32,000 nucleotides of DNA from Erysipelotrichaceae bacterium MTC7 (GCA_001695645.1 LVZN01000005.1:1-32000), one strand, 5' to 3'. Numbered from the stretch's first letter, positions 9,067 to 22,828 are shown. Program-made: numbers and translations. The notes: a model not told the origin generated them from the letters alone.

Positions 9067-9137
9067 GTAAGTAGAGGTAACAATTATAGGAGGATAGGAT
9101 TTGTAATTGAATGGTGTGTTTACAGGAGGAGGAAATT

Positions 9138-10949
9138 ATGAAAAGAAGAAAGAGAAAGGATTTTAAGTATTCCAATATTCCTAAAATTGTATCCATATTT
9201 GTGATAATTTTAATGGCATTCAGTAGTATGGTGCCAAGAGTATTGTTGGATGTGGAAGAAGAAGATGTTCAATTCAATAATGTTACAACTGAAGAAAAAG
9301 TAAGCGTGACTCGGACAAGCGAGGATAATCAACCACTGGTTCACCTACAAGGTGAAACGCTCCTTGATGATGTTTATGAAATCGAAGTTGCAGCCAAGAG
9401 TACGGGGTTGGAATACCGACCCAAACCAAAGTTTAATGTAGTTTTTGTACTCGATAACTCTGGTAGTATGCAAAGGAGAATTGACTCGCAAACCGATGCT
9501 ATTAAGGGTCAAAGACGACTTGATTACTTGATAAATGATGTAAATACCTTTGCTAAAAAGATACTTGGTTATCAGGAATCAACAGTAAGCGCAGTTAACT
9601 TTTACAATTCAGGGAAGTCAGATGTCATATTCTCGGGTGCAACAACACCAAAACAAGTCGAAGCTGCAATGGTGGAAGGTACTGGAAAGCTCGTTACATT
9701 AGGAGGGACGAATATTTCTGCTGGAATAATCCAAGCAGAAAATGTACTTGATTCTTTAAAAACTTCGCAAACGAATGCTTTTGTTGGATACCACAACGTT
9801 GTGGTAATGATGACAGATGGTCAAATCAATAGTCCACAATATACGTACCCAGAATTAGATAGTTTGCAAAGTTTGGTTAATGCATATAGTCAACGTCTAA
9901 GTGTTTATGGAGTTGCATACTCTACACCAAATATGGATAATGATGGAACGTTCTCAAGATTTAGTAACTTATGGACTTCTGGAAATGCTGGCTATGGACG
10001 AGGATATATGTATGAAGTAAATGCACAAAATAAAGAAAATATGTTTGATGAAATCTATCAACGTATCTCGAAAGTGCAAACAGACGAAATTATGATTGAT
10101 GTTACATTACCAGAAGGACTTGACTTTGTAGAGGAAACTGAGCAACAACCATACACTGTGGATGGAAATACGTTAAAAGCAATAATTTCATATCCTAAAG
10201 ACGGTGTAGAACATTCGTTTAAATACAAAGTGCGAATCAATCAAGAAAAAGTATATGAAATCTACGATAAGAATGTAGAGCGAGAAGAGATTTTCGCGAA
10301 GATTGACCATAATTTCGAGTACAAATTCAGATTACTGAATAAGGAAATTGTGAATGAAAGTGAAAGTTCACAGGAAATATTTGATTATCGTAAGACGAAT
10401 GTTGTACTTGATCTACCAATCTATCGACTCACAACACATGCAATCAACGGAACGATTGGACATGCGCATGGCGTACTTGGTACGGTTGTTGAAAACGCAG
10501 GGTCGAAAGATATTCCTGTCTACGTTGGACGTGGTGCAAGTGGTACATCAGGGTACTGGGTGGATGGTTATGGACCAGATCCAGCAATTGAAGGATTGGA
10601 ATTTGTTCGTTCAACAATTGAACGACCATTCCAAGTTGATGGAAATGAAATGTTTACTACGGACCTTGGATCTCATGAAGTAGAAGGTATCTTTACAGAT
10701 ACACATATTGAAGTTGAGTGGAAAAAGAAAGAAACACCACCGCCAACACCAATACCTGATCCTAAGCCAGATCCAACACCTGACCCAACACCAGATCCAG
10801 TTGAACTACCAAGTATAGCGGTAGTGGAACTACCAAGTGTTGCAACAGGTATGGGCGCACCAGATGTTACGCTACTACCTATGGTGTGGATGGCTGGCGG
10901 GACTGCTGCAGTCATCGTATTAAAGAAATGGAGAGATAAAAAGAAATAG
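9138..10949 (+). CDS. Secreted VWA-domain surface protein with a C-terminal sorting-like signal (LPSVATG + TM + KKWRDKKK)
   Basis: RBS GGAGGAGG precedes ATG 9138; the ORF-track ATG 9111 lacks properly spaced SD. N-terminal basic/hydrophobic signal anchor. MIDAS motif DNSGS at 9453. Pro-rich PDPKPDPTPDPTPDP linker. Hydrophobic segment and basic tail at the extreme C terminus. Confidence 0.85.
   Translation: MKRRKRKDFKYSNIPKIVSIFVIILMAFSSMVPRVLLDVEEEDVQFNNVTTEEKVSVTRTSEDNQPLVHLQGETLLDDVYEIEVAAKSTGLEYRPKPKFNVVFVLDNSGSMQRRIDSQTDAIKGQRRLDYLINDVNTFAKKILGYQESTVSAVNFYNSGKSDVIFSGATTPKQVEAAMVEGTGKLVTLGGTNISAGIIQAENVLDSLKTSQTNAFVGYHNVVVMMTDGQINSPQYTYPELDSLQSLVNAYSQRLSVYGVAYSTPNMDNDGTFSRFSNLWTSGNAGYGRGYMYEVNAQNKENMFDEIYQRISKVQTDEIMIDVTLPEGLDFVEETEQQPYTVDGNTLKAIISYPKDGVEHSFKYKVRINQEKVYEIYDKNVEREEIFAKIDHNFEYKFRLLNKEIVNESESSQEIFDYRKTNVVLDLPIYRLTTHAINGTIGHAHGVLGTVVENAGSKDIPVYVGRGASGTSGYWVDGYGPDPAIEGLEFVRSTIERPFQVDGNEMFTTDLGSHEVEGIFTDTHIEVEWKKKETPPPTPIPDPKPDPTPDPTPDPVELPSIAVVELPSVATGMGAPDVTLLPMVWMAGGTAAVIVLKKWRDKKK
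10758..10799 (+). repeat. Short in-frame tandem repeat encoding the (PD-P-T/K) linker
   Basis: gatcctaagcca/gatccaacacct/gacccaacacca/gatcca, a 12-nt period encoding DPKPDPTPDPTPDP. Confidence 0.6.
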
Positions 10950-15661: not shown

Positions 15662-16576
15662 ATGAATAAACAAAAAGTATTGGTTGTCATTGGGCCAACT
15701 GGAGTTGGTAAAAGTAAGATGGCAGTTGCGCTTGCTAAGCAATTTAATGGGGAAATCATTAGTGGTGATGCCTATCAAGTATATAAACAGCTAAGCATCG
15801 GTAGTGCAAAAATTACGCCAAATGAAATGGAAGGAATACCACACTACCTTGTGGACTGTTATGACTATACGGATGATTACAATGTGAAAGTCTTTCAAGA
15901 CCAAGCAAGAATCTACATTGATCAGATTGCCAAAAAAGGTAAATTGCCCATCATTTGTGGTGGAACTGGTTTATATATTAAGGCAGCACTGTATGACTAT
16001 GTATTTGAAGATGAACAAGTTGATCAAGCGTATAGCAAGTATCTAGACACACTTGATTCCCAACAATTGTTTGAGATGTTAGTTGAAGTTGATCCAAAAA
16101 GTGCCAACGTATTACATCCTAACAACGCACGAAGAGTAAAACGTGCTTTACTTATGCACCATGCAGGTACAAAGAAAAGCGAACGCATTGATAAACAAAA
16201 CCATGAACTTTTGTACGATGCAAACATCATCGGTTTAACATTGGAACGTGCCAAACTTTATGAACGAATTGACAAACGTGTCCTGAAGATGATGGATACA
16301 GGATTACTTGATGAAATTCAAACGATTGTAAAAGACAGAAAAACCTTCGATCTACAAAGCATGCGGGGAATTGGCTACAAAGAGTGGCAACCCTATATGG
16401 AAGGCACAGCAACTGCTGAACAAGTTATATCATCCATCCAAAAAAATACAAGAAACTTTGCGAAGCGACAATATACATGGTTTAACAATCAAATGCAGGT
16501 GCACTGGTTTGATATTAGTCAACCAGCTATATATGAAGAAATTACAGAACAAGTATCTTCCTTTCTCAAGGAATAA
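15662..16576 (+). CDS. miaA: tRNA dimethylallyltransferase
   Basis: P-loop GPTGVGKS plus PHYLVD and RQYTWF motifs. It starts 1 nt after the mutL stop. Confidence 0.93.
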   Translation: MNKQKVLVVIGPTGVGKSKMAVALAKQFNGEIISGDAYQVYKQLSIGSAKITPNEMEGIPHYLVDCYDYTDDYNVKVFQDQARIYIDQIAKKGKLPIICGGTGLYIKAALYDYVFEDEQVDQAYSKYLDTLDSQQLFEMLVEVDPKSANVLHPNNARRVKRALLMHHAGTKKSERIDKQNHELLYDANIIGLTLERAKLYERIDKRVLKMMDTGLLDEIQTIVKDRKTFDLQSMRGIGYKEWQPYMEGTATAEQVISSIQKNTRNFAKRQYTWFNNQMQVHWFDISQPAIYEEITEQVSSFLKE

Positions 16577-16614
16577 TACTTGTTTTTTTACGCTTAAACA
16601 TTTGTCCGAAAGCC

Positions 16615-16643
16615 TTTACATAATGTGCAAAATGCATTACTAT
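16615..16643 (+). promoter_or_regulatory. Sigma-A-type promoter of the LRR surface-protein gene (leader A)
   Basis: TTTACA (16615-16620), 17-nt spacer, TACTAT (16638-16643). The -10/+1 region ATGAAAGTGTGG resembles module B (ATGATAAAAGTGTGG). Confidence 0.45.
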
Positions 16644-16649
16644 GAAAGT

Positions 16650-16864
16650 GTGGCATTGGATGTAATTAATGTTTGATTTGCGTGCATTAATTAAGATGAA
16701 TAGATGTATGGGAATTCATCTTAAACTTCAGTGTGGGTGTGAAGTAAGTCGTTTAATTATTAGAGAATACTTACGGGGTAATAATTGAATACTTTTAATG
16801 CAGTTCATTTGTGTGGTACATGGACTGTTTTTTTGTTCTTGTACACATGTGTAAGGAGAACCCT
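16650..16864 (+). promoter_or_regulatory. Long structured 5' leader (A) ending in an intrinsic terminator just before the RBS
   Basis: Hairpins: TAATTAATG/CATTAATTA (16663-16693), AAGATGAAT/ATTCATCTT (16693-16722), ACTTCA/TGAAGT (16725-16745), AATTATT/AATAATT (16755-16786), then the terminator at 16801-16834. The 3' ~75 nt are paralogous to 19335-19417. Confidence 0.55.
16801..16834 (+). terminator. Leader terminator/attenuator A
   Basis: CAGTTCA (16801-16807) pairs with TGGACTG (16821-16827). The apex TGT (16810-16812) pairs with ACA (16818-16820), followed by T7. It lies 30 nt upstream of ATG 16865. Confidence 0.7.
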
Positions 16865-18613
16865 ATGAAAAAAATTAAAATATTTATGGTATTGTCATTG
16901 ATGCTTACCGTGTTTGTAGGATTCATGAATCATGCAACTAACGTAAAAGCAGCAACCCCTGTGATTTGTGAATCAACAGACAATGGAATGTCAATGAAAG
17001 TTGGTGATAAGCTATCTGAGCATATTCCCGACATTGCGTTTGCAAGGTTTGTAATAAAGAATGTGTTGGGTGGTAGTGCTGTAGATCAAACACCCGAGAC
17101 GTATATACTTACCGAACAGGATCTAACAAAGATTTCAAATTATAAAAATATGAATATAACTGCAGACAGTGTGGATGAAAGTTCAAATTATCATGTACAG
17201 TCACTTGAAGGAATCCATAACTTTGAGAATCTTCAAACGTTTCGAATAAGTCAGTCGAAAACGCCATCTGATAGTCGGCTGACATCGCTACCAATGGAAC
17301 TATCACGTTTAAATAAATCATTGATAAGCTTGACTGTTTACAGTAGTGGATTAAAAGAAGTTCCAGATGTAGTGTCTTGTTTAACGAACTTAACAACGTT
17401 AAACTTTGGATACAACCAAATTACAGAAGGCGTAGATAACGTGTTACCATTACTGCAGCTAAAGACCCTGATATTACTTGGTAACTACATTAGTGAAGTG
17501 CCTGCTGGTATTGGGGCATTAACTCAGTTGGATCAGTTATCATTTGCATTTAATCGACTGACAGAAATACCTGAAGAAGTCTACACACTGCCAAATGTGC
17601 GGATCCTTGCATTTGCAACCAATCAAATCACACATATAAATGGCGCTGAAAATATAGTATCTCCAAATCTAACGCAATTCACTCTTGCGTTCAATCAAAT
17701 TGCAGATTTTTCGCCAATCCTTGGGTTAGGTACAGGTGGACAGTTTGCAAACCAGTATCGTATAGCCAAACCAATCATGGTGGAAGAGGGAACAACCGTT
17801 GTTGATGTTGATTTAAAGGATTATGTATTCAATCACATGGGCGCAAGAATTGAGGGAAATGCAGATACAGTATTATATTTTCCTGATATGGTAACGGAAT
17901 TTACGTTCTATGATGTAAATCAATCATATTACTCACATTACAACACACCACGCATTGTGAATAGTGAACGCGAAAATGCGATTACGATTGATCGGAAAGA
18001 AAAGGAAAGTGTTATTAAGCTAGAAATCAAAGAAAATGAACAATTTGGAAGACACGTGATGTTTCGACTTGAAGCAACTGGCGAAAAGACAGATGATTTG
18101 CATAACTGGAGTTCATTTGGTGTTTATAATAACGACATTACGTACATTGTTCCAATCGAAGAATACGTCATTCCAACAACTGGTTATATCGTTCATTACT
18201 GGAAAGATGCAATAGGTACAGGCATAGATCATGAAAACTATCTTGGAACACATCGTAGTGAAGAAATTTATATGAATGGTGATGAAGTTGAACTAAATGA
18301 TGAACTAAAGAATTTATTCCTAAATAAAGATCAGTATTTTGTATTGGATCGTGTTAGTGCAGAGAAACTAACGATTGATATTGAGATACTAGATAACAAT
18401 GTTTTCCATGTCGTATATCGAAGAGACTTACCAGCGATTGCACCTGATCCAGAAGTGAAAGACGAACCAAAAGTAGAACCAAAGCAAGAAATTGTAGGTT
18501 TACCAAGTATTGCCACATATGACACGGTAGATGTATTGTTCTACTTGCTTTTAATCAGTGCCATGTCTGTAAGTATTCTTGTTCTTGTAAAAGCGAAAGG
18601 ACAAAAACGATAA
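16865..18613 (+). CDS. Secreted leucine-rich-repeat (internalin-like) surface protein with a C-terminal sorting-like signal (LPSIATY + TM + KAKGQKR)
   Basis: RBS AAGGAGA precedes ATG 16865; the ORF-track GTG 16811 lies inside the leader terminator. Signal peptide MKKIKIFMVLSLMLTVFVGFMNHATNVKA/A. About 7 LRRs of the LxxLxLxxNxIxEVP type. The C-terminal beta-rich module ends in NNVFHVVYRRD, like the repeats of the 1136-aa protein. Confidence 0.85.
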   Translation: MKKIKIFMVLSLMLTVFVGFMNHATNVKAATPVICESTDNGMSMKVGDKLSEHIPDIAFARFVIKNVLGGSAVDQTPETYILTEQDLTKISNYKNMNITADSVDESSNYHVQSLEGIHNFENLQTFRISQSKTPSDSRLTSLPMELSRLNKSLISLTVYSSGLKEVPDVVSCLTNLTTLNFGYNQITEGVDNVLPLLQLKTLILLGNYISEVPAGIGALTQLDQLSFAFNRLTEIPEEVYTLPNVRILAFATNQITHINGAENIVSPNLTQFTLAFNQIADFSPILGLGTGGQFANQYRIAKPIMVEEGTTVVDVDLKDYVFNHMGARIEGNADTVLYFPDMVTEFTFYDVNQSYYSHYNTPRIVNSERENAITIDRKEKESVIKLEIKENEQFGRHVMFRLEATGEKTDDLHNWSSFGVYNNDITYIVPIEEYVIPTTGYIVHYWKDAIGTGIDHENYLGTHRSEEIYMNGDEVELNDELKNLFLNKDQYFVLDRVSAEKLTIDIEILDNNVFHVVYRRDLPAIAPDPEVKDEPKVEPKQEIVGLPSIATYDTVDVLFYLLLISAMSVSILVLVKAKGQKR

Positions 18614-18648
18614 CAAGGATTAGAATTGAAAGCTCTATAATTATTCTT

Positions 18649-18680
18649 CAGCAGTAACGCTCATGTTGCTGCTGTTTCTT
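18649..18680 (+). terminator. Intrinsic terminator after the LRR gene
   Basis: CAGCAGTAAC pairs with GTTGCTGCTG (10 bp, one G-U), loop GCTCAT, followed by TTTCTT. Confidence 0.7.
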
Positions 18681-18806
18681 ATATAAAATGGCGTAAAGAA
18701 AAAAATATATAGATATTGATTAACTATTATATGATTATAACCATATAATAAGAGGAATAACATTAAAGCAGTATGGTTAATTTATATAGATGGCAAATAA
18801 AATCGC

Positions 18807-18835
18807 TTTACAAGTAAAGTTGACTCTTTTATGAT
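18807..18835 (+). promoter_or_regulatory. Sigma-A-type promoter of module B
   Basis: TTTACA (18807-18812), 17-nt spacer, TATGAT (18830-18835). Confidence 0.45.
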
Positions 18836-18841
18836 AAAAGT

Positions 18842-19033
18842 GTGGATATCATAAAGTATTCATTTGTGTGTGTGTGTTAATGGAGATTCATTTTTCTCGG
18901 AGGGCAATTTCGATAGTAAAAAGGTTTACATGAACACAAAAGAAATTGAAAAACCTCTACAAGAATGTGGCGATATGACACCATGTATCCTTACTCAGAC
19001 AGTTCGTAATTGTGCATTATGAACTGTTTTTTT
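18842..19033 (+). ncRNA. Stand-alone leader-like transcript (module B): candidate sRNA/decoy RNA or small-peptide mRNA
   Basis: A promoter and a strong terminator bracket about 190 nt. The sequence is paralogous to the 5' leader of the downstream adhesin gene, but no RBS or gene follows it. The only ORF is 30 codons (18930-19022). Confidence 0.4.
19000..19033 (+). terminator. Intrinsic terminator of module B
   Basis: CAGTTCGTAAT pairs with ATTATGAACTG (11 bp, one G-U), loop TGTGC, T7. Confidence 0.85.
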
Positions 19034-19138
19034 CTGCAAAAACACAATACCTATTGAAAATAATTAAATATAAATATAAATATTAGTATGGAACAAACGA
19101 TATAATGATAAATTTATATGGTAAGTCAAGGGTATCGC

Positions 19139-19167
19139 TTTACTAAAGTAGAAACATGCTTTATGAT
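19139..19167 (+). promoter_or_regulatory. Sigma-A-type promoter of module C (1136-aa adhesin gene)
   Basis: TTTACT (19139-19144), 17-nt spacer, TATGAT (19162-19167). It is positionally homologous to the module B promoter. Confidence 0.45.
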
Positions 19168-19173
19168 AAAAAT

Positions 19174-19417
19174 ATAGAATATTAAAAATATTCATGTGTG
19201 TGTGCGTTAATAGGGAAATTACAATTATTGGCGGGTATAGAAGGAAGACTATCCCAGGCTTTAATCACTTGAACTGAAGTGATTTTACCAATAGATATCA
19301 ACAGGGATATCCTTTTGTGGACCCAATATTTCTTATCTTTATTAATGCAGTTCATTAGTGTAGTACTTGGACTGCTTTTTTGTATTCCAAGTACCTGTGT
19401 GTTAAGGAGGAAAGAAT
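19174..19417 (+). promoter_or_regulatory. Long 5' leader (C) ending in an intrinsic terminator just before the RBS
   Basis: It contains the hairpins AATCACTT-gaactg-AAGTGATT (19263-19284) and GATATC-aacagg-GATATC (19294-19311), the terminator at 19348-19381, then AAGGAGG and ATG 19418. Confidence 0.55.
19348..19381 (+). terminator. Leader terminator/attenuator C
   Basis: CAGTTCA (19348-19354) pairs with TGGACTG (19368-19374). The apex AGT (19357-19359) pairs with ACT (19365-19367), followed by C then T6. It lies 36 nt upstream of ATG 19418. Confidence 0.7.
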
Positions 19418-22400
19418 ATGAAAGTAAAGGAAAGCACCAGGAAGATATTGATAGGTTTATTAACATTTGTGCTTTTGATTGGAGTGGTTTTTGTAGGAAC
19501 TACACAAAATGCTAGGGCAAATACAGAACGGCCAGTAAAAGGGGATCTTGGGCAATTAAACTCAACAGCTATCTATGGGGAGAAAGACCGTGGAACTCCT
19601 GTAAGCGGAGAACTTGAGTTTACAAATTTTTCAGAAGATGGAAATGTAACAGCAACAAAAAAAATTACTAAACTAGAAAATGGTAAATTCGAAATAACGT
19701 TTACCACAAAAACAAAAAACATTGTAAAATTAACAGAGAAGCAAATCAATGTAGTTATTGTTTTTGATAAAAGTGGAAGTATGAAAAATGAAGTAAAGTA
19801 TTGTAAACAGTATAATCTAAATGATTGCAGAAATAACAAAAATAAAAACGATGGATATACAAAGGAAGTCATTACTAAAGCAAAGTGGGATAATGCAAAA
19901 GCGGGTGTAAACTCACTGGTTGACAATTTGATAAAAACATACGGAAAAGATGTATCAATTCAGTTTGTTACATTTGACAATGGCGCTACAATAAAAACAG
20001 AATCCCCAATATACCAAGAAAATGGTGAAGCTTCAAACAGCACAGATTTGATATATGAAAATGGGAATTACTCTTTTGATAGTGAATTATTTGGAAAAGC
20101 AAATGGTTGGACAAACATCAAAGACGGATTTGATAAAGCAAATACTGCACTTTCGAATGTGACAAACAAGTTTACTGAGGATGAACAAAATATTGTGTTC
20201 CTATTAGGAGATGGTGAACCAAGATTGAGTAATGATCCCGATGCAGCGACTATAGCACATAATGAGGCAGTTACTGCATCAAGCATTGTGAAGAAAAATG
20301 CTACGGTATATACTTTAGGATATGATGTAGAGGTTAACGGGACTGCAGAAAGCAATTTGAAGTCATATGCAACACTAAAGGATAACAAACCGTTATATTG
20401 GGCAGGCAGCATTGATAATATTAAAACGGTAATTCAGTCAATTGTGCGCGCAATAAATGAAGAAGTGACATCAATTGAAGGCATGATTCATGATATGATT
20501 CCTTCATATTTTACAGTAAGTAGTGTCAAAAATGAGTACATAACAAAAACAGCAGATGGTACGGCTGTTAAGATTCCAATGACTGGTGGTGAAGCAGATA
20601 AAGATGGCTATGTTACAGCGACAACAACATTTACAGTTACATTGGATGAATCAAAAGTTTTAGAACCAGGTTGGTATGCAATTAATGATCATTCCAATGG
20701 TCAAGTAAAATTTGTCTATGGAGAAAGTGCATCTGGTTCAAATGACGATGAAGTTGTCATTAAAGCTGCTATTGATGAAGAAAATGAAGGGAATCCGGCT
20801 GTTTATGCATATCCGGAACAAGGCTATATTTTGCGTCGTACATTTGTTGAAAGTGATGGCATAAAAACACCATCGAGACCGGATGTTCAATCTACCACTA
20901 AGTTTATTACTGGACAATCACTCGATAATCAGACGAAGAACATTGCATTTGATGCGAGTCATTTTGAAAATGAAAGCGAATTGTTAGCTGATATTGATGC
21001 AACAGATAATAATGGAGTTGTGATTGGATACTGGAAACACAACCAACAAAATCCTGTTTCGACTACAACAATTACACCAATTATAGAGAACAACGTAGTT
21101 GAAGAAGAATTTGTTTTTGTACGAGAAAAACAAAAATATATCATTAACCATCATATCGTCGATGGAAACGAAGATGAAATTGCTTTAACACAACCTGGCT
21201 TAGGTGAGGACGTATACAAAGAGTTGAATGCGCCTGTCATGATTGAAACAGCAGGTCATGAGTTCCTTGGTGATTCAAGTGCTCCAAATTTTGTTTATCG
21301 CGACCATAAAATTGGTGGTGTGTCTTCAACTGCAAGCACATTCAATATCCAAGCCGATGATAATGCCAACGTAGTAGATGTATATTATGTTCCTCACAAA
21401 TATAAAGATGAGGCACCTTATGTGATTAACTATGTTGATATAACAGATGGTGAAGAAAATGCCACTGCGATTCCTGGAAGCACATCGGAAACAGGGCAAT
21501 TAGGTTATGATCAATCAATTGACTTGAATACTAAACAACATACATTTGCTGGATATTACTATGTTGATACAATCACAACGGATGGAGAAGGTGCAACAAC
21601 GTTGACAGCAATTCGACCTGAAGAAGGCGATGACTCAGCACTAAGTGTAGCGAGTATTCGTTATAAACGTGTGCAAGGAACGTATGCAATTCAAGAACAT
21701 TACCAAGAATTAGATGGTAGTTACTCAGATGAACCAATGAAAGTCAGTGGGTTGTTGAATGCTGGTACAGTAGTGCGTGTCGTGCAAGAAGTAAGTGATC
21801 CGATTGGAGGAGTTATAACTGAGACGGTTACAAATACAAAAGCACAAACACATGAGTTAAATACGGATCTCACAAATCCAGCACTTGGAGACAAGCTAAC
21901 TATTCCAAACACAGGAACTAGTGAACTTGGACAAGTAGTATTCCATGTATATTACAAATTGAAAATGGCACCAGTAGCAGTCGAATATCACTATGATGAT
22001 GGAACAGCTAAGTCAAGACAAGACTTACCAGCTGTGTATGTTACTGGGTCAGCTAATTTAACTCAAGAACATATTGATGCAGGTAACTTGAATGGCTTAT
22101 ATACAACTGATAGCACGCCAGAAACTGTAGCTAATGTAACGAATGATGGTGTAGTATTCCATGTATACTACACAAGAAAAACAGCACCAGTTGTAGTGCG
22201 TTACTATCACGATACTTTCGATAATGATGGATATTTGGGTGAGGACATTATTGCTACGTATAAAGTTGGCGAGTCTGTAAATGCAGCGGATGTAATCACT
22301 GCTAATATGATGGACAAATATCGTCCAGTGAAATATCTAGGAGGAGCATTTATTGGCGAAACGACAGTGGTTGTTAGCGAAGATCCAACCGGAGCATTCA

Positions 22401-22828
22401 ACATTATCTATATGCCAGCACCAGTTGGTAAAGCAACTTATAAGGTAATGTTCTGGTTAGATGAAATTGGAACATCAACTACTAGTGAAAAGTTCATCAA
22501 TCAATACGAAAGCAGTGAATTGTTTGATGAAGGAACACAAATTGATGCTAAAGATATTGATACTGAGCGTTTCCTAACAACTGGACTAATGTTCAAATCT
22601 ATCGATAAAGAATCTTTAGAAATTGTTGCTGATGGGGAAAATGTATTCCATGTTATTTACATAAGTAATGCACCATCAAAAGCACCAGAAACTACAATCC
22701 TTGGACTTCCAGCGATTGCTACAGGTGATGTAAATAATGCGATTGCATACTTAACATTATTACTGTTAGCTGTTAGTGCAGTTGTAGGAACATACAAAGT
22801 AAGAAAAAATAGAAAAAATGAAGCATGA
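19418..22828 (+). CDS. Large secreted adhesin: N-terminal VWA domain + central region + six MucBP-like repeats + sorting-like signal (LPAIATG + TM + KVRKNRKNEA)
   Basis: RBS AAGGAGG. Signal peptide with NARA/NT cleavage. MIDAS DKSGS at 19766. The repeats each end in a V(V/F)(D/H)VYY-type strand. The C terminus is tripartite. Confidence 0.88.
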   Translation: MKVKESTRKILIGLLTFVLLIGVVFVGTTQNARANTERPVKGDLGQLNSTAIYGEKDRGTPVSGELEFTNFSEDGNVTATKKITKLENGKFEITFTTKTKNIVKLTEKQINVVIVFDKSGSMKNEVKYCKQYNLNDCRNNKNKNDGYTKEVITKAKWDNAKAGVNSLVDNLIKTYGKDVSIQFVTFDNGATIKTESPIYQENGEASNSTDLIYENGNYSFDSELFGKANGWTNIKDGFDKANTALSNVTNKFTEDEQNIVFLLGDGEPRLSNDPDAATIAHNEAVTASSIVKKNATVYTLGYDVEVNGTAESNLKSYATLKDNKPLYWAGSIDNIKTVIQSIVRAINEEVTSIEGMIHDMIPSYFTVSSVKNEYITKTADGTAVKIPMTGGEADKDGYVTATTTFTVTLDESKVLEPGWYAINDHSNGQVKFVYGESASGSNDDEVVIKAAIDEENEGNPAVYAYPEQGYILRRTFVESDGIKTPSRPDVQSTTKFITGQSLDNQTKNIAFDASHFENESELLADIDATDNNGVVIGYWKHNQQNPVSTTTITPIIENNVVEEEFVFVREKQKYIINHHIVDGNEDEIALTQPGLGEDVYKELNAPVMIETAGHEFLGDSSAPNFVYRDHKIGGVSSTASTFNIQADDNANVVDVYYVPHKYKDEAPYVINYVDITDGEENATAIPGSTSETGQLGYDQSIDLNTKQHTFAGYYYVDTITTDGEGATTLTAIRPEEGDDSALSVASIRYKRVQGTYAIQEHYQELDGSYSDEPMKVSGLLNAGTVVRVVQEVSDPIGGVITETVTNTKAQTHELNTDLTNPALGDKLTIPNTGTSELGQVVFHVYYKLKMAPVAVEYHYDDGTAKSRQDLPAVYVTGSANLTQEHIDAGNLNGLYTTDSTPETVANVTNDGVVFHVYYTRKTAPVVVRYYHDTFDNDGYLGEDIIATYKVGESVNAADVITANMMDKYRPVKYLGGAFIGETTVVVSEDPTGAFNIIYMPAPVGKATYKVMFWLDEIGTSTTSEKFINQYESSELFDEGTQIDAKDIDTERFLTTGLMFKSIDKESLEIVADGENVFHVIYISNAPSKAPETTILGLPAIATGDVNNAIAYLTLLLLAVSAVVGTYKVRKNRKNEA
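21134..22663 (+). repeat. Six tandem ~70-90-aa protein repeats (MucBP-like) within the adhesin gene
   Basis: Repeat boundaries (aa): 573-657 (...VVDVYYV), 667-750, 755-846 (...VVFHVYYK), 851-918 (...VVFHVYYT), 923-999 (...AFNIIYMP), 1005-1082 (...NVFHVIYIS). Each repeat starts with a Y-x-[IV]-x-[YH] strand. Confidence 0.6.

Follow-up and report, generated by a model that had tools for sequence, protein, structure and literature searches.

Attenuator leaders of the Firmicutes, among them those of the trp, pyr, bgl/sac and T-box systems, share a plan: a promoter, then a structured leader of about 200 nucleotides (nt), and an intrinsic terminator immediately ahead of the ribosome-binding site. 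In Clostridioides difficile, sortase-anchored adhesins are under the control of cyclic di-GMP (c-di-GMP) riboswitches. We analyzed a 32,000-nt chromosomal segment of Erysipelotrichaceae bacterium MTC7 (the window), in which an LRR surface-protein gene and the gene for a VWA-domain adhesin of 1136 amino acids (aa) are separated by a gap holding two related promoter-leader-terminator units. The second of these, unit C, leads into the adhesin gene, while the first, unit B, has no gene behind it. Two precedents exist for leader-derived small RNAs (sRNAs). SreA and SreB of Listeria monocytogenes are terminated SAM-riboswitch transcripts that act in trans on prfA mRNA (PMC5449094), and Rli55/EutX is an sRNA with an ANTAR-type site that sequesters the antiterminator EutV (PMC5449094, PMC5821096). 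The initial annotation of this DNA had preferred to see in unit B an sRNA like SreA or EutX/Rli55, working in trans or as a decoy, and the SreA/SreB and Rli55 precedents that it cited are real (PMC5449094).

Our analysis suggests that unit B is probably an orphaned unit of a family of adhesin leaders and that, as far as its sequence tells, it has been remodelled into a constitutive promoter-terminator cassette. Unit B occupies 18779-19033 of the plus strand, on which the elements of units A and C and the LRR and adhesin genes also lie, and consists, as the initial annotation had it, of a promoter, a predicted transcribed region of about 190 nt and a terminator, without a gene. It begins with an upstream promoter box, AATTTATATAG (18779-18789), placed 17 base pairs (bp) 5' of the -35 element. 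The promoter TTTACA-17-TATGAT (18807-18835) is followed by a 5' hairpin of 8 bp including wobbles (18842-18863; -4.6 kcal/mol), by a 5' box, (TG)6-TTAATGGAG (18865-18885), and by the intrinsic terminator (19000-19033), in which the arms CAGTTCGTAAT and ATTATGAACTG enclose the loop TGTGC and precede a run of seven T. By sequence this hairpin has the properties of an intrinsic (Rho-independent) terminator, with 11-14 pairs, a 5-nt loop, T7 and a stability of -10.7 kcal/mol. The 11-bp stem, 5-nt loop and T7 had been described correctly, whereas the claim that the B terminator is stronger than that of C stood only marginally (-10.7 vs -10.3 kcal/mol); its distinguishing feature is the uninterrupted stem and small loop. 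Beyond it there is only an AT-rich spacer (19034-19110), which forms the upstream region of unit C between the B terminator and the C upstream box, and nothing in it has a credible ribosome-binding site. The whole gap, from the LRR stop (18613) to the adhesin ATG (19418), measures 804 bp, as stated earlier.

Units B and C are clearly related. A promoter scan recovered both of the sites that had been proposed, TTTACA-17-TATGAT of unit B and TTTACT-17-TATGAT of unit C (19139-19167), and the extended pattern AATTTATATRG-N17-TTTAC occurred in the window only at B (18779) and C (19111), against a chance expectation of 0. A repeat search returned a common block of 61 nt with 70% identity at a spacing of 332, and blastn aligned the two units at 76% over 84 nt (E = 1e-6). 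The offset of 331-332 bp that had been given for the two copies holds at the 5' end, where it is 332, but at the terminators it is 348, so the copies are not strictly collinear. The earlier description was borne out in that B is paralogous to cis-acting leaders, carries no gene, and has an intact promoter and a terminator of its own. A third copy, unit A, lies 5' of the LRR gene and is paralogous to B and C. The terminator blocks of the three units (16795-16836, 18994-19035 and 19342-19383) form one repeat family, in which A and C are 90% identical and B is 67% identical to A, the reference copy.

The leader family was defined from six gene-linked classes; 12 leaders were aligned and RNAalifold was run without B. 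The consensus fold showed compensatory changes and comprised three elements, namely a 5' hairpin, a long-range helix of 13 bp and the terminator. In the long-range helix, which was 91% paired, the 3' part of the family 5' box, TGTGTGTGCGTTAATARGG, a GU-run with GYGTTAAT, pairs over 12-13 bp with an invariant 3' box, CTTTATTAATGC. The 3' box abuts a weak terminator, consisting of a 7-bp stem (CAGTTCA/TGAACTG; 100% paired), a conserved loop of 13-16 nt and a U-run. The strand that directly follows the U-run can instead pair with the 3' half of this loop and the initial bases of the terminator 3' arm, which gives an alternative hairpin. In a test limited to the loop, the loop-downstream helix showed double changes in 4 of 7 pairs. 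When the helix was extended to 11 pairs, 85% of cells were paired, compared with 37-52% when the partner was slid, and the covariation score of 0.30 was reached by none of 500 shuffles. The alternative duplex was present in all six gene-linked classes at -10.6 to -15.0 kcal/mol, exceeded shuffled partners at p < 0.03 in five of the six, with the LRR leader of the sister species marginal (p = 0.057 in assembly L081 and 0.027 in L087), and was the minimum-energy fold of the full 3' region in some leaders. In these predicted structures the alternative hairpin and the terminator exclude each other.

Because the polymerase reaches the alternative partner only after the U-run, this hairpin cannot be a conventional co-transcriptional antiterminator. 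We also looked by eye for an upstream antiterminator common to the family, but the terminator 3' arm is duplicated only in unit C, where the copy lies in the middle hairpin. The middle region of the leaders lacks conservation from class to class, which speaks against a pocket for a small molecule, and we found no open reading frame (ORF) for a leader peptide conserved across the leaders. From the two-state design we infer conditional attenuation of the downstream gene, in which some factor would decide the outcome at the weak terminator and read-through transcripts would refold into the alternative hairpin immediately upstream of a GT-rich run and the ribosome-binding site. Such leaders resemble classical attenuators in having conserved, mutually exclusive hairpins and in being repeated, as one leader type, before several functionally related genes. 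They differ in that the competing hairpin uses the terminator loop, the 3' arm and a strand past the U-run, and in having no Rfam match. The presence of several adhesin genes under a common leader RNA likewise recalls the C. difficile case; unlike there, neither a c-di-GMP nor any other riboswitch model matched and the central region is not conserved.

Compared with the gene-linked leaders, unit B was ordinary in its 5' domain and aberrant in its 3' domain. With leave-one-class-out profiles of the 3' domain the gene-linked leaders scored 38-55 bits and B scored 11 bits, while with the 5'-domain profile B scored 14.7 bits, inside the family range of 2-35. Counted over conserved columns, B matched the family in the promoter, which is of the TTTAC(A/T)-17-TATGAT type (21/23), the 5' end and hairpin (6/7), the 5' box (11/12), the terminator stem (11/12) and the U-run (5/5), and had decayed in the 3' box (3/7), the terminator loop (3/7) and the segment after the terminator (2/7). 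Its 3' box reads CCTTACTCAGAC instead of the family sequence, and its own 5' and 3' boxes paired no better than shuffled sequences. Unlike the six gene-linked classes, B gave an alternative duplex of only -5.9 kcal/mol (p = 0.23). The former loop has been closed into the stem, and the five added pairs produce the uninterrupted 11-bp stem. Lacking the 3' box, the conserved loop, the alternative-hairpin partner, the GT-rich run, the GGAGG ribosome-binding site and a surface-protein gene, B is, to judge from the alignment, a family unit minus the putative switch and the gene, with the generic expression signals kept.

To place the family, relatives were retrieved through an exact ribosomal protein S18 match and through ispF homologues. 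The closest species representative of the window genome was Breznakia blatticola, with a miaA protein 72% identical. The gene order in the window is rpsF-ssb-rpsR, a VWA protein (VWA612), mutS-mutL-miaA, the LRR surface protein, the 804-bp gap, the 1136-aa VWA surface protein (VWA1136) and ispF-gltX. Three more assemblies of the window species, at about 98.8% nucleotide identity (L082/L093, L091 and L092), carried the LRR gene, the gap and the VWA adhesin just as the window does. In a sister species (L081+L094 and L087/L088), whose core genes are about 79% identical at the nucleotide level, the island reads miaA, LRR654, VWA661, VWA1211, a 477-aa protein and ispF, and in B. blatticola (L001/L084) it reads miaA, VWA669 and a 477-aa protein. 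Every surface-protein gene of the miaA-ispF island in these three Breznakia lineages has its own promoter-plus-leader unit of one type. This includes LRR, VWA661, VWA1211 and the 477-aa gene in the sister species and VWA669 and the 477-aa gene in B. blatticola, and the distance from the -35 element to the end of the U-run is 215-242 nt across the family. The leaders of the 477-aa gene (L094 8320-8408; L001 14060-14151) have the family ribosome-binding site followed by a mini-ORF of 5-7 codons, with a second ribosome-binding site about 60-70 nt further on, before the real start codon.

Outside the island the family was not encountered. B. pachnodae and more distant relatives had no island next to ispF, and an nhmmer profile search of 1.59 Mb of fetched loci and of the rest of the window returned no further leader copy. 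Rfam 15 gave no match to the leaders, the sole match at gathering score in the window being a tRNA elsewhere, and an Rfam scan of 16500-19500 by E-value yielded only noise far under threshold. Two pattern scans of metagenomes for the conserved terminator block had no match. A search for homologues of the adhesin N-terminus found no match, and one for VWA661 returned only itself and one 92% relative. On the covariation described above, this is a predicted structured 5' leader, previously undescribed and narrow in its distribution.

The sister species offers an explanation for a unit without a gene. As a fallback, the initial annotation had considered B a relic of a lost adhesin gene and had proposed checking whether a gene follows B elsewhere; between the LRR gene and the large VWA gene of the sister species there is indeed a VWA gene of 661 aa, preceded by a family leader. 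The 5' domain of B is nearest to the VWA661/669-type leader, at 85-87%, while its 3' domain is the outlier of the family (71-80%, vs 82-98% among the other leaders). An independent precedent for gene loss comes from B. blatticola, in which L001 10940-11127 is 71% identical to the sister LRR leader and L001 11181-11360 matches the very end of the LRR gene together with the downstream intergenic region at 89% identity; these remnants indicate that the LRR coding sequence was deleted and the leader left behind. The remnant (L001 10940-11250), a second orphaned leader, comprises the 5' three-quarters of an LRR-type leader directly after miaA, without a -35 element, and is followed by the former terminator of the LRR gene; a 42-codon ORF within it is of doubtful significance. 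The occupied slot, the 5' domain and the B. blatticola precedent make the relic of a lost adhesin gene the best fit to the comparative data. The gene behind B would have been lost, probably a relative of the 661-aa VWA gene, and B would have retained its consensus promoter, the 5' half of its leader and its terminator stem. If the promoter fires, it would yield a constitutively terminated RNA of about 190 nt, most likely a by-product or at most a transcriptional insulator before unit C, rather than a decoy.

We also considered whether B arose by a local tandem duplication of unit C, with the upstream copy then drifting. B and C are adjacent, the repeat reaches about 110 nt upstream of the -35 element (z = 5.1 for the sequence before B against that before C), and the -35 context TCGCTTTAC and the upstream box are common to both. 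However, the same upstream box and -35 context also occur at the VWA1211 unit of the sister species, and two adjacent family units would give this offset without any duplication. The 5' domain of B is 80% identical to C but 85-87% identical to the VWA661-type leaders, and its 3' domain is 73% identical to C but 80% identical to the VWA1211 leader; in the upstream region the figures are 70% and 65%. B is not specifically closest to C, which argues against a recent tandem duplication of C, and we regard this origin as improbable.

Comparison of strains within the species was uninformative on this point. The 804-bp gap was identical in four strains except that the repeat at 18865-18876 in B is (TG)6 in the window and (TG)5 in the three others; in B, a C-to-T change lengthened the TG repeat relative to the family TGTGTGTGCG. 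The gap lies within a block of 973 nt without a substitution (18470-19442), preceded by 8 single-nucleotide polymorphisms (SNPs) in 120 nt and followed by dense divergence after codon 8 of the adhesin, the body of which is not alignable between strains. The AT-rich spacer is as conserved as the functional elements, so that recent shared ancestry, or recombination at conserved flanks, is likelier than constraint on B. The comparison of related strains that had been proposed was made, but with four strains identical apart from one TG unit it speaks neither for nor against constraint on B.

Further observations on these strains concern the flanking genes. The adhesin body (19443-22683, compared with L091 2939-6307 and L093 6444-9812) could not be aligned between strains by blastn (1136 vs 1122 aa), whereas the adhesin leader, the first 8 codons and the last ~145 nt showed little or no difference. 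The pattern resembles allelic replacement of a cassette set between conserved flanks. On the other side of the LRR gene, 16240-16665 (the 3' end of miaA, the leader A promoter and the loop of its 5' hairpin) is SNP-dense between strains, at 3.5-5%, while 16780-16864 (the leader A 3' box, terminator, alternative strand and Shine-Dalgarno sequence) is unchanged except for the length of the U-run.

Several results weigh against, or complicate, reading B as the relic of a lost gene. The orthology of B and the VWA661 leader rests on about 50 nt. The proposed endpoints of a deletion found no confirmation, the sequence after B and that after the VWA661 terminator showing no significant similarity (p ~0.2), and on the same figure we set aside a deletion between two U-runs, that of the leader and that of the terminator behind the VWA661 gene. 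VWA1136 is similar to VWA661 over the N-terminal half and to VWA1211 over the C-terminal half, at about 31% in both cases, which blurs gene orthology in the island. The zero-divergence region in the four strains neither supports nor excludes constraint on B. The decay of B is uneven, with about 38% (8/21) of conserved columns kept in the 3' elements and about 90% in the promoter, 5' box and terminator stem (Fisher p = 6e-4, for a grouping chosen after the data had been seen). A purely neutral relic should lose its promoter as fast as its other elements, and the loop change that adds five pairs resembles, in the sequence of B, selection for termination. In view of the uneven decay and the hardened terminator, we still allow a functional short RNA or an insulator role a low probability.

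The same features are the starting point for reading B as a functional leader-derived sRNA that has its own promoter, is always terminated and acts in trans on leaders A and C. Such an RNA might titrate a factor that binds the GU-rich 5' box, or, by pairing of its 5' box with the 3' box of either C or A, it might upset the long-range helix and the terminator decision there. In B, about 90% of the family-conserved columns are intact in the promoter, 5' hairpin, 5' box and terminator stem, compared with about 40% in the 3' elements, the terminator is an uninterrupted 11-bp stem followed by T7, and a duplex of 15 contiguous pairs is possible between the 5' box and the 3' box of C (-13.9 kcal/mol, vs -15.3 for the helix of C itself). 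That the boxes of B pair poorly with each other would fit such a role, and SreA/SreB and Rli55/EutX show that RNAs of this kind exist (PMC5449094). On the other hand, the pairing of B with C follows automatically from paralogy, and the intramolecular helix of C would out-compete it. The 5' box of B is predicted to be about 90% paired inside B, with 18976-18985, and the fold of the whole B transcript is unremarkable (z = -1.5). The most conserved elements of the family, which are the most obvious candidates for recognition by a factor, are those that B has lost. Neither the profile search of the fetched loci nor the VWA661 homologue search found a gene-less orthologue of B in another lineage. 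Finally, a duplex search and a scan for contiguous complementarity found none above shuffled controls between B and the translation-initiation regions or boxes of A, C and VWA612.

Set beside the described systems, B resembles SreA and SreB in being a short RNA, derived from a cis-acting leader, that would end at the leader terminator (229 nt for SreA, about 190 nt predicted for B). SreA and SreB, however, still stand before their genes and have an intact aptamer and a defined target pairing, whereas B is gene-less, has lost the conserved 3' elements and has no significant complementarity to candidate targets. With Rli55/EutX the decoy reading of B shares the concept of a stand-alone copy of a leader element that titrates a terminator-controlling factor. 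Rli55 keeps the protein-binding motif of its target leaders, whereas B is without the conserved elements next to the terminator; no regulator is encoded nearby, and no dual hexaloop was noticed in B, although no dedicated search for one was made. Of the elements of the parent leader that a regulator might recognise, B has kept the 5' box, whereas its 3' box, loop and alternative hairpin are gone. We found no support for the decoy or trans-sRNA reading favoured in the initial annotation, given these losses and the lack of complementarity above chance, and we consider it unlikely. A bolder version, in which the leaders are a new class of riboregulator (a clamp helix, with the terminator loop and 3' arm switching to a downstream partner) for fast-evolving adhesins with non-canonical anchors, and B has been neo-functionalised, its promoter, 5' box and hardened terminator being kept because its RNA of about 190 nt works in trans on the sister leaders, for instance by competing for the 3' box or for a factor that binds the GU box, appears to us quite unlikely.

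B might, alternatively, be the mRNA of a small protein. It contains a 30-codon ORF, MNTKEIEKPLQECGDMTPCILTQTVRNCAL (18930-19022), which in the window strain only can be read from a TTG at 18864 as a longer form of 52 codons. The open frame runs into the terminator, its stop codon lying inside the stem, and AAAGG stands 5 nt 5' of the ATG. That ribosome-binding site is weak compared with the GGAGG of every island gene, and by our own estimate a 30-codon ORF arises in about 12% of cases by chance at this base composition. At the homologous place in C the frame closes after two codons, the TG indel shifts the 52-codon form out of frame in the other strains, and gene callers left the ORF uncalled in three assemblies (L091-L093). 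It had no protein-family match and no counterpart in C or the other leaders. The 30-codon ORF is probably not a gene, and a small protein as the product of B is very improbable. An orphaned leader unit is our preferred account of B.

The remaining elements of units A and C follow the family plan. Unit A has the promoter TTTACA-17-TACTAT (16615-16643), found by the scan and aligned with the other units. The leader of the LRR gene (16644-16864) contains the 5' hairpin (16652-16673), the 5' box (16677-16695), the 3' box (16790-16801), the terminator (16801-16834), the 3' strand of the alternative hairpin (16835-16848) and the Shine-Dalgarno sequence (16853-16858). In other strains gene callers placed a 70-aa ORF inside leader A (L082 16548-16760; L091 100-312) and started the LRR gene at an upstream GTG; both are probably annotation artefacts. 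In unit C (upstream box and promoter, 19111-19167) the upstream box lies at 19111-19121 ahead of the promoter already given. Within leader C, the 5' hairpin (19177-19193) and 5' box (19194-19215) together span 19177-19215, the 5' strand of the long-range helix (19204-19215) pairs with the 3' box (19337-19348), and the terminator (19348-19381) completes the segment 19337-19381. The alternative hairpin of leader C (19363-19394) pairs GTACTTGGA (19363-19371) with TCCAAGTAC (19386-19394) and is mutually exclusive with the terminator in the predicted fold.

The LRR surface-protein gene, the start of which we corrected to 16865, extends to 18613 and encodes 582 aa with a signal peptide and, at the C-terminus, LPSIATYD, a transmembrane segment and a K/R tail; a terminator follows at 18649-18674 (hairpin/terminator scan). 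The VWA-domain adhesin gene lies at 19418-22828, and its Shine-Dalgarno sequence (19404-19410) is preceded by a GT-rich run. A hydrophobic segment with a K/R tail is found at the C-termini of three surface proteins of the window, after LPSIATYD in the LRR protein (18560-18613), LPAIATGD in VWA1136 (22700-22828) and ELPSVATG in VWA612 (10850-10949), and the surface proteins of the sister species carry LPSVATYD and APSTGD. This layout is sortase-signal-like with a non-canonical motif, and no NCBIfam LPXTG model matched these C-termini. The VWA612 gene, with a likely start at 9138, has a GT-rich run before its ribosome-binding site GGAGGAGG (9100-9137), as in the island genes; a profile search of its upstream region found none of the leader elements. 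Where the window has VWA612, a trio of HTH, unknown and DUF3784 genes lies between rpsR and mutS in L084 (4912-5906), L087 and L088. In B. blatticola (L084 1629-3420) a DarTG-like pair of a Macro-domain and a DarT gene is inserted between ispD and rpsF; L087 and L088 begin no further upstream than rpsF, so that the site of this insert lies outside them. A search of the locus against a plasmid collection had no match, and exact-protein look-ups of miaA, the adhesin, ispF and the GNAT protein found none of them on record.

If B is indeed an orphaned leader, it would be a by-product, left when a gene was lost from a fast-changing island of adhesin genes. It would also serve as a natural experiment, in which the 3' box, the terminator loop and the alternative hairpin are seen to be tied to a downstream gene, while the other elements persist without one. 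Should B act in trans after all, it would be a clean case of an orphaned leader giving rise to a regulatory sRNA. The leader family, with its predicted competition between terminator and alternative hairpin, is more interesting than B itself. The topology of its two exclusive hairpins is unusual. The family also marks the conserved flanks of what appears to be an exchange of adhesin alleles, and it may offer a handle on the co-regulation of adhesins in gut Erysipelotrichaceae.

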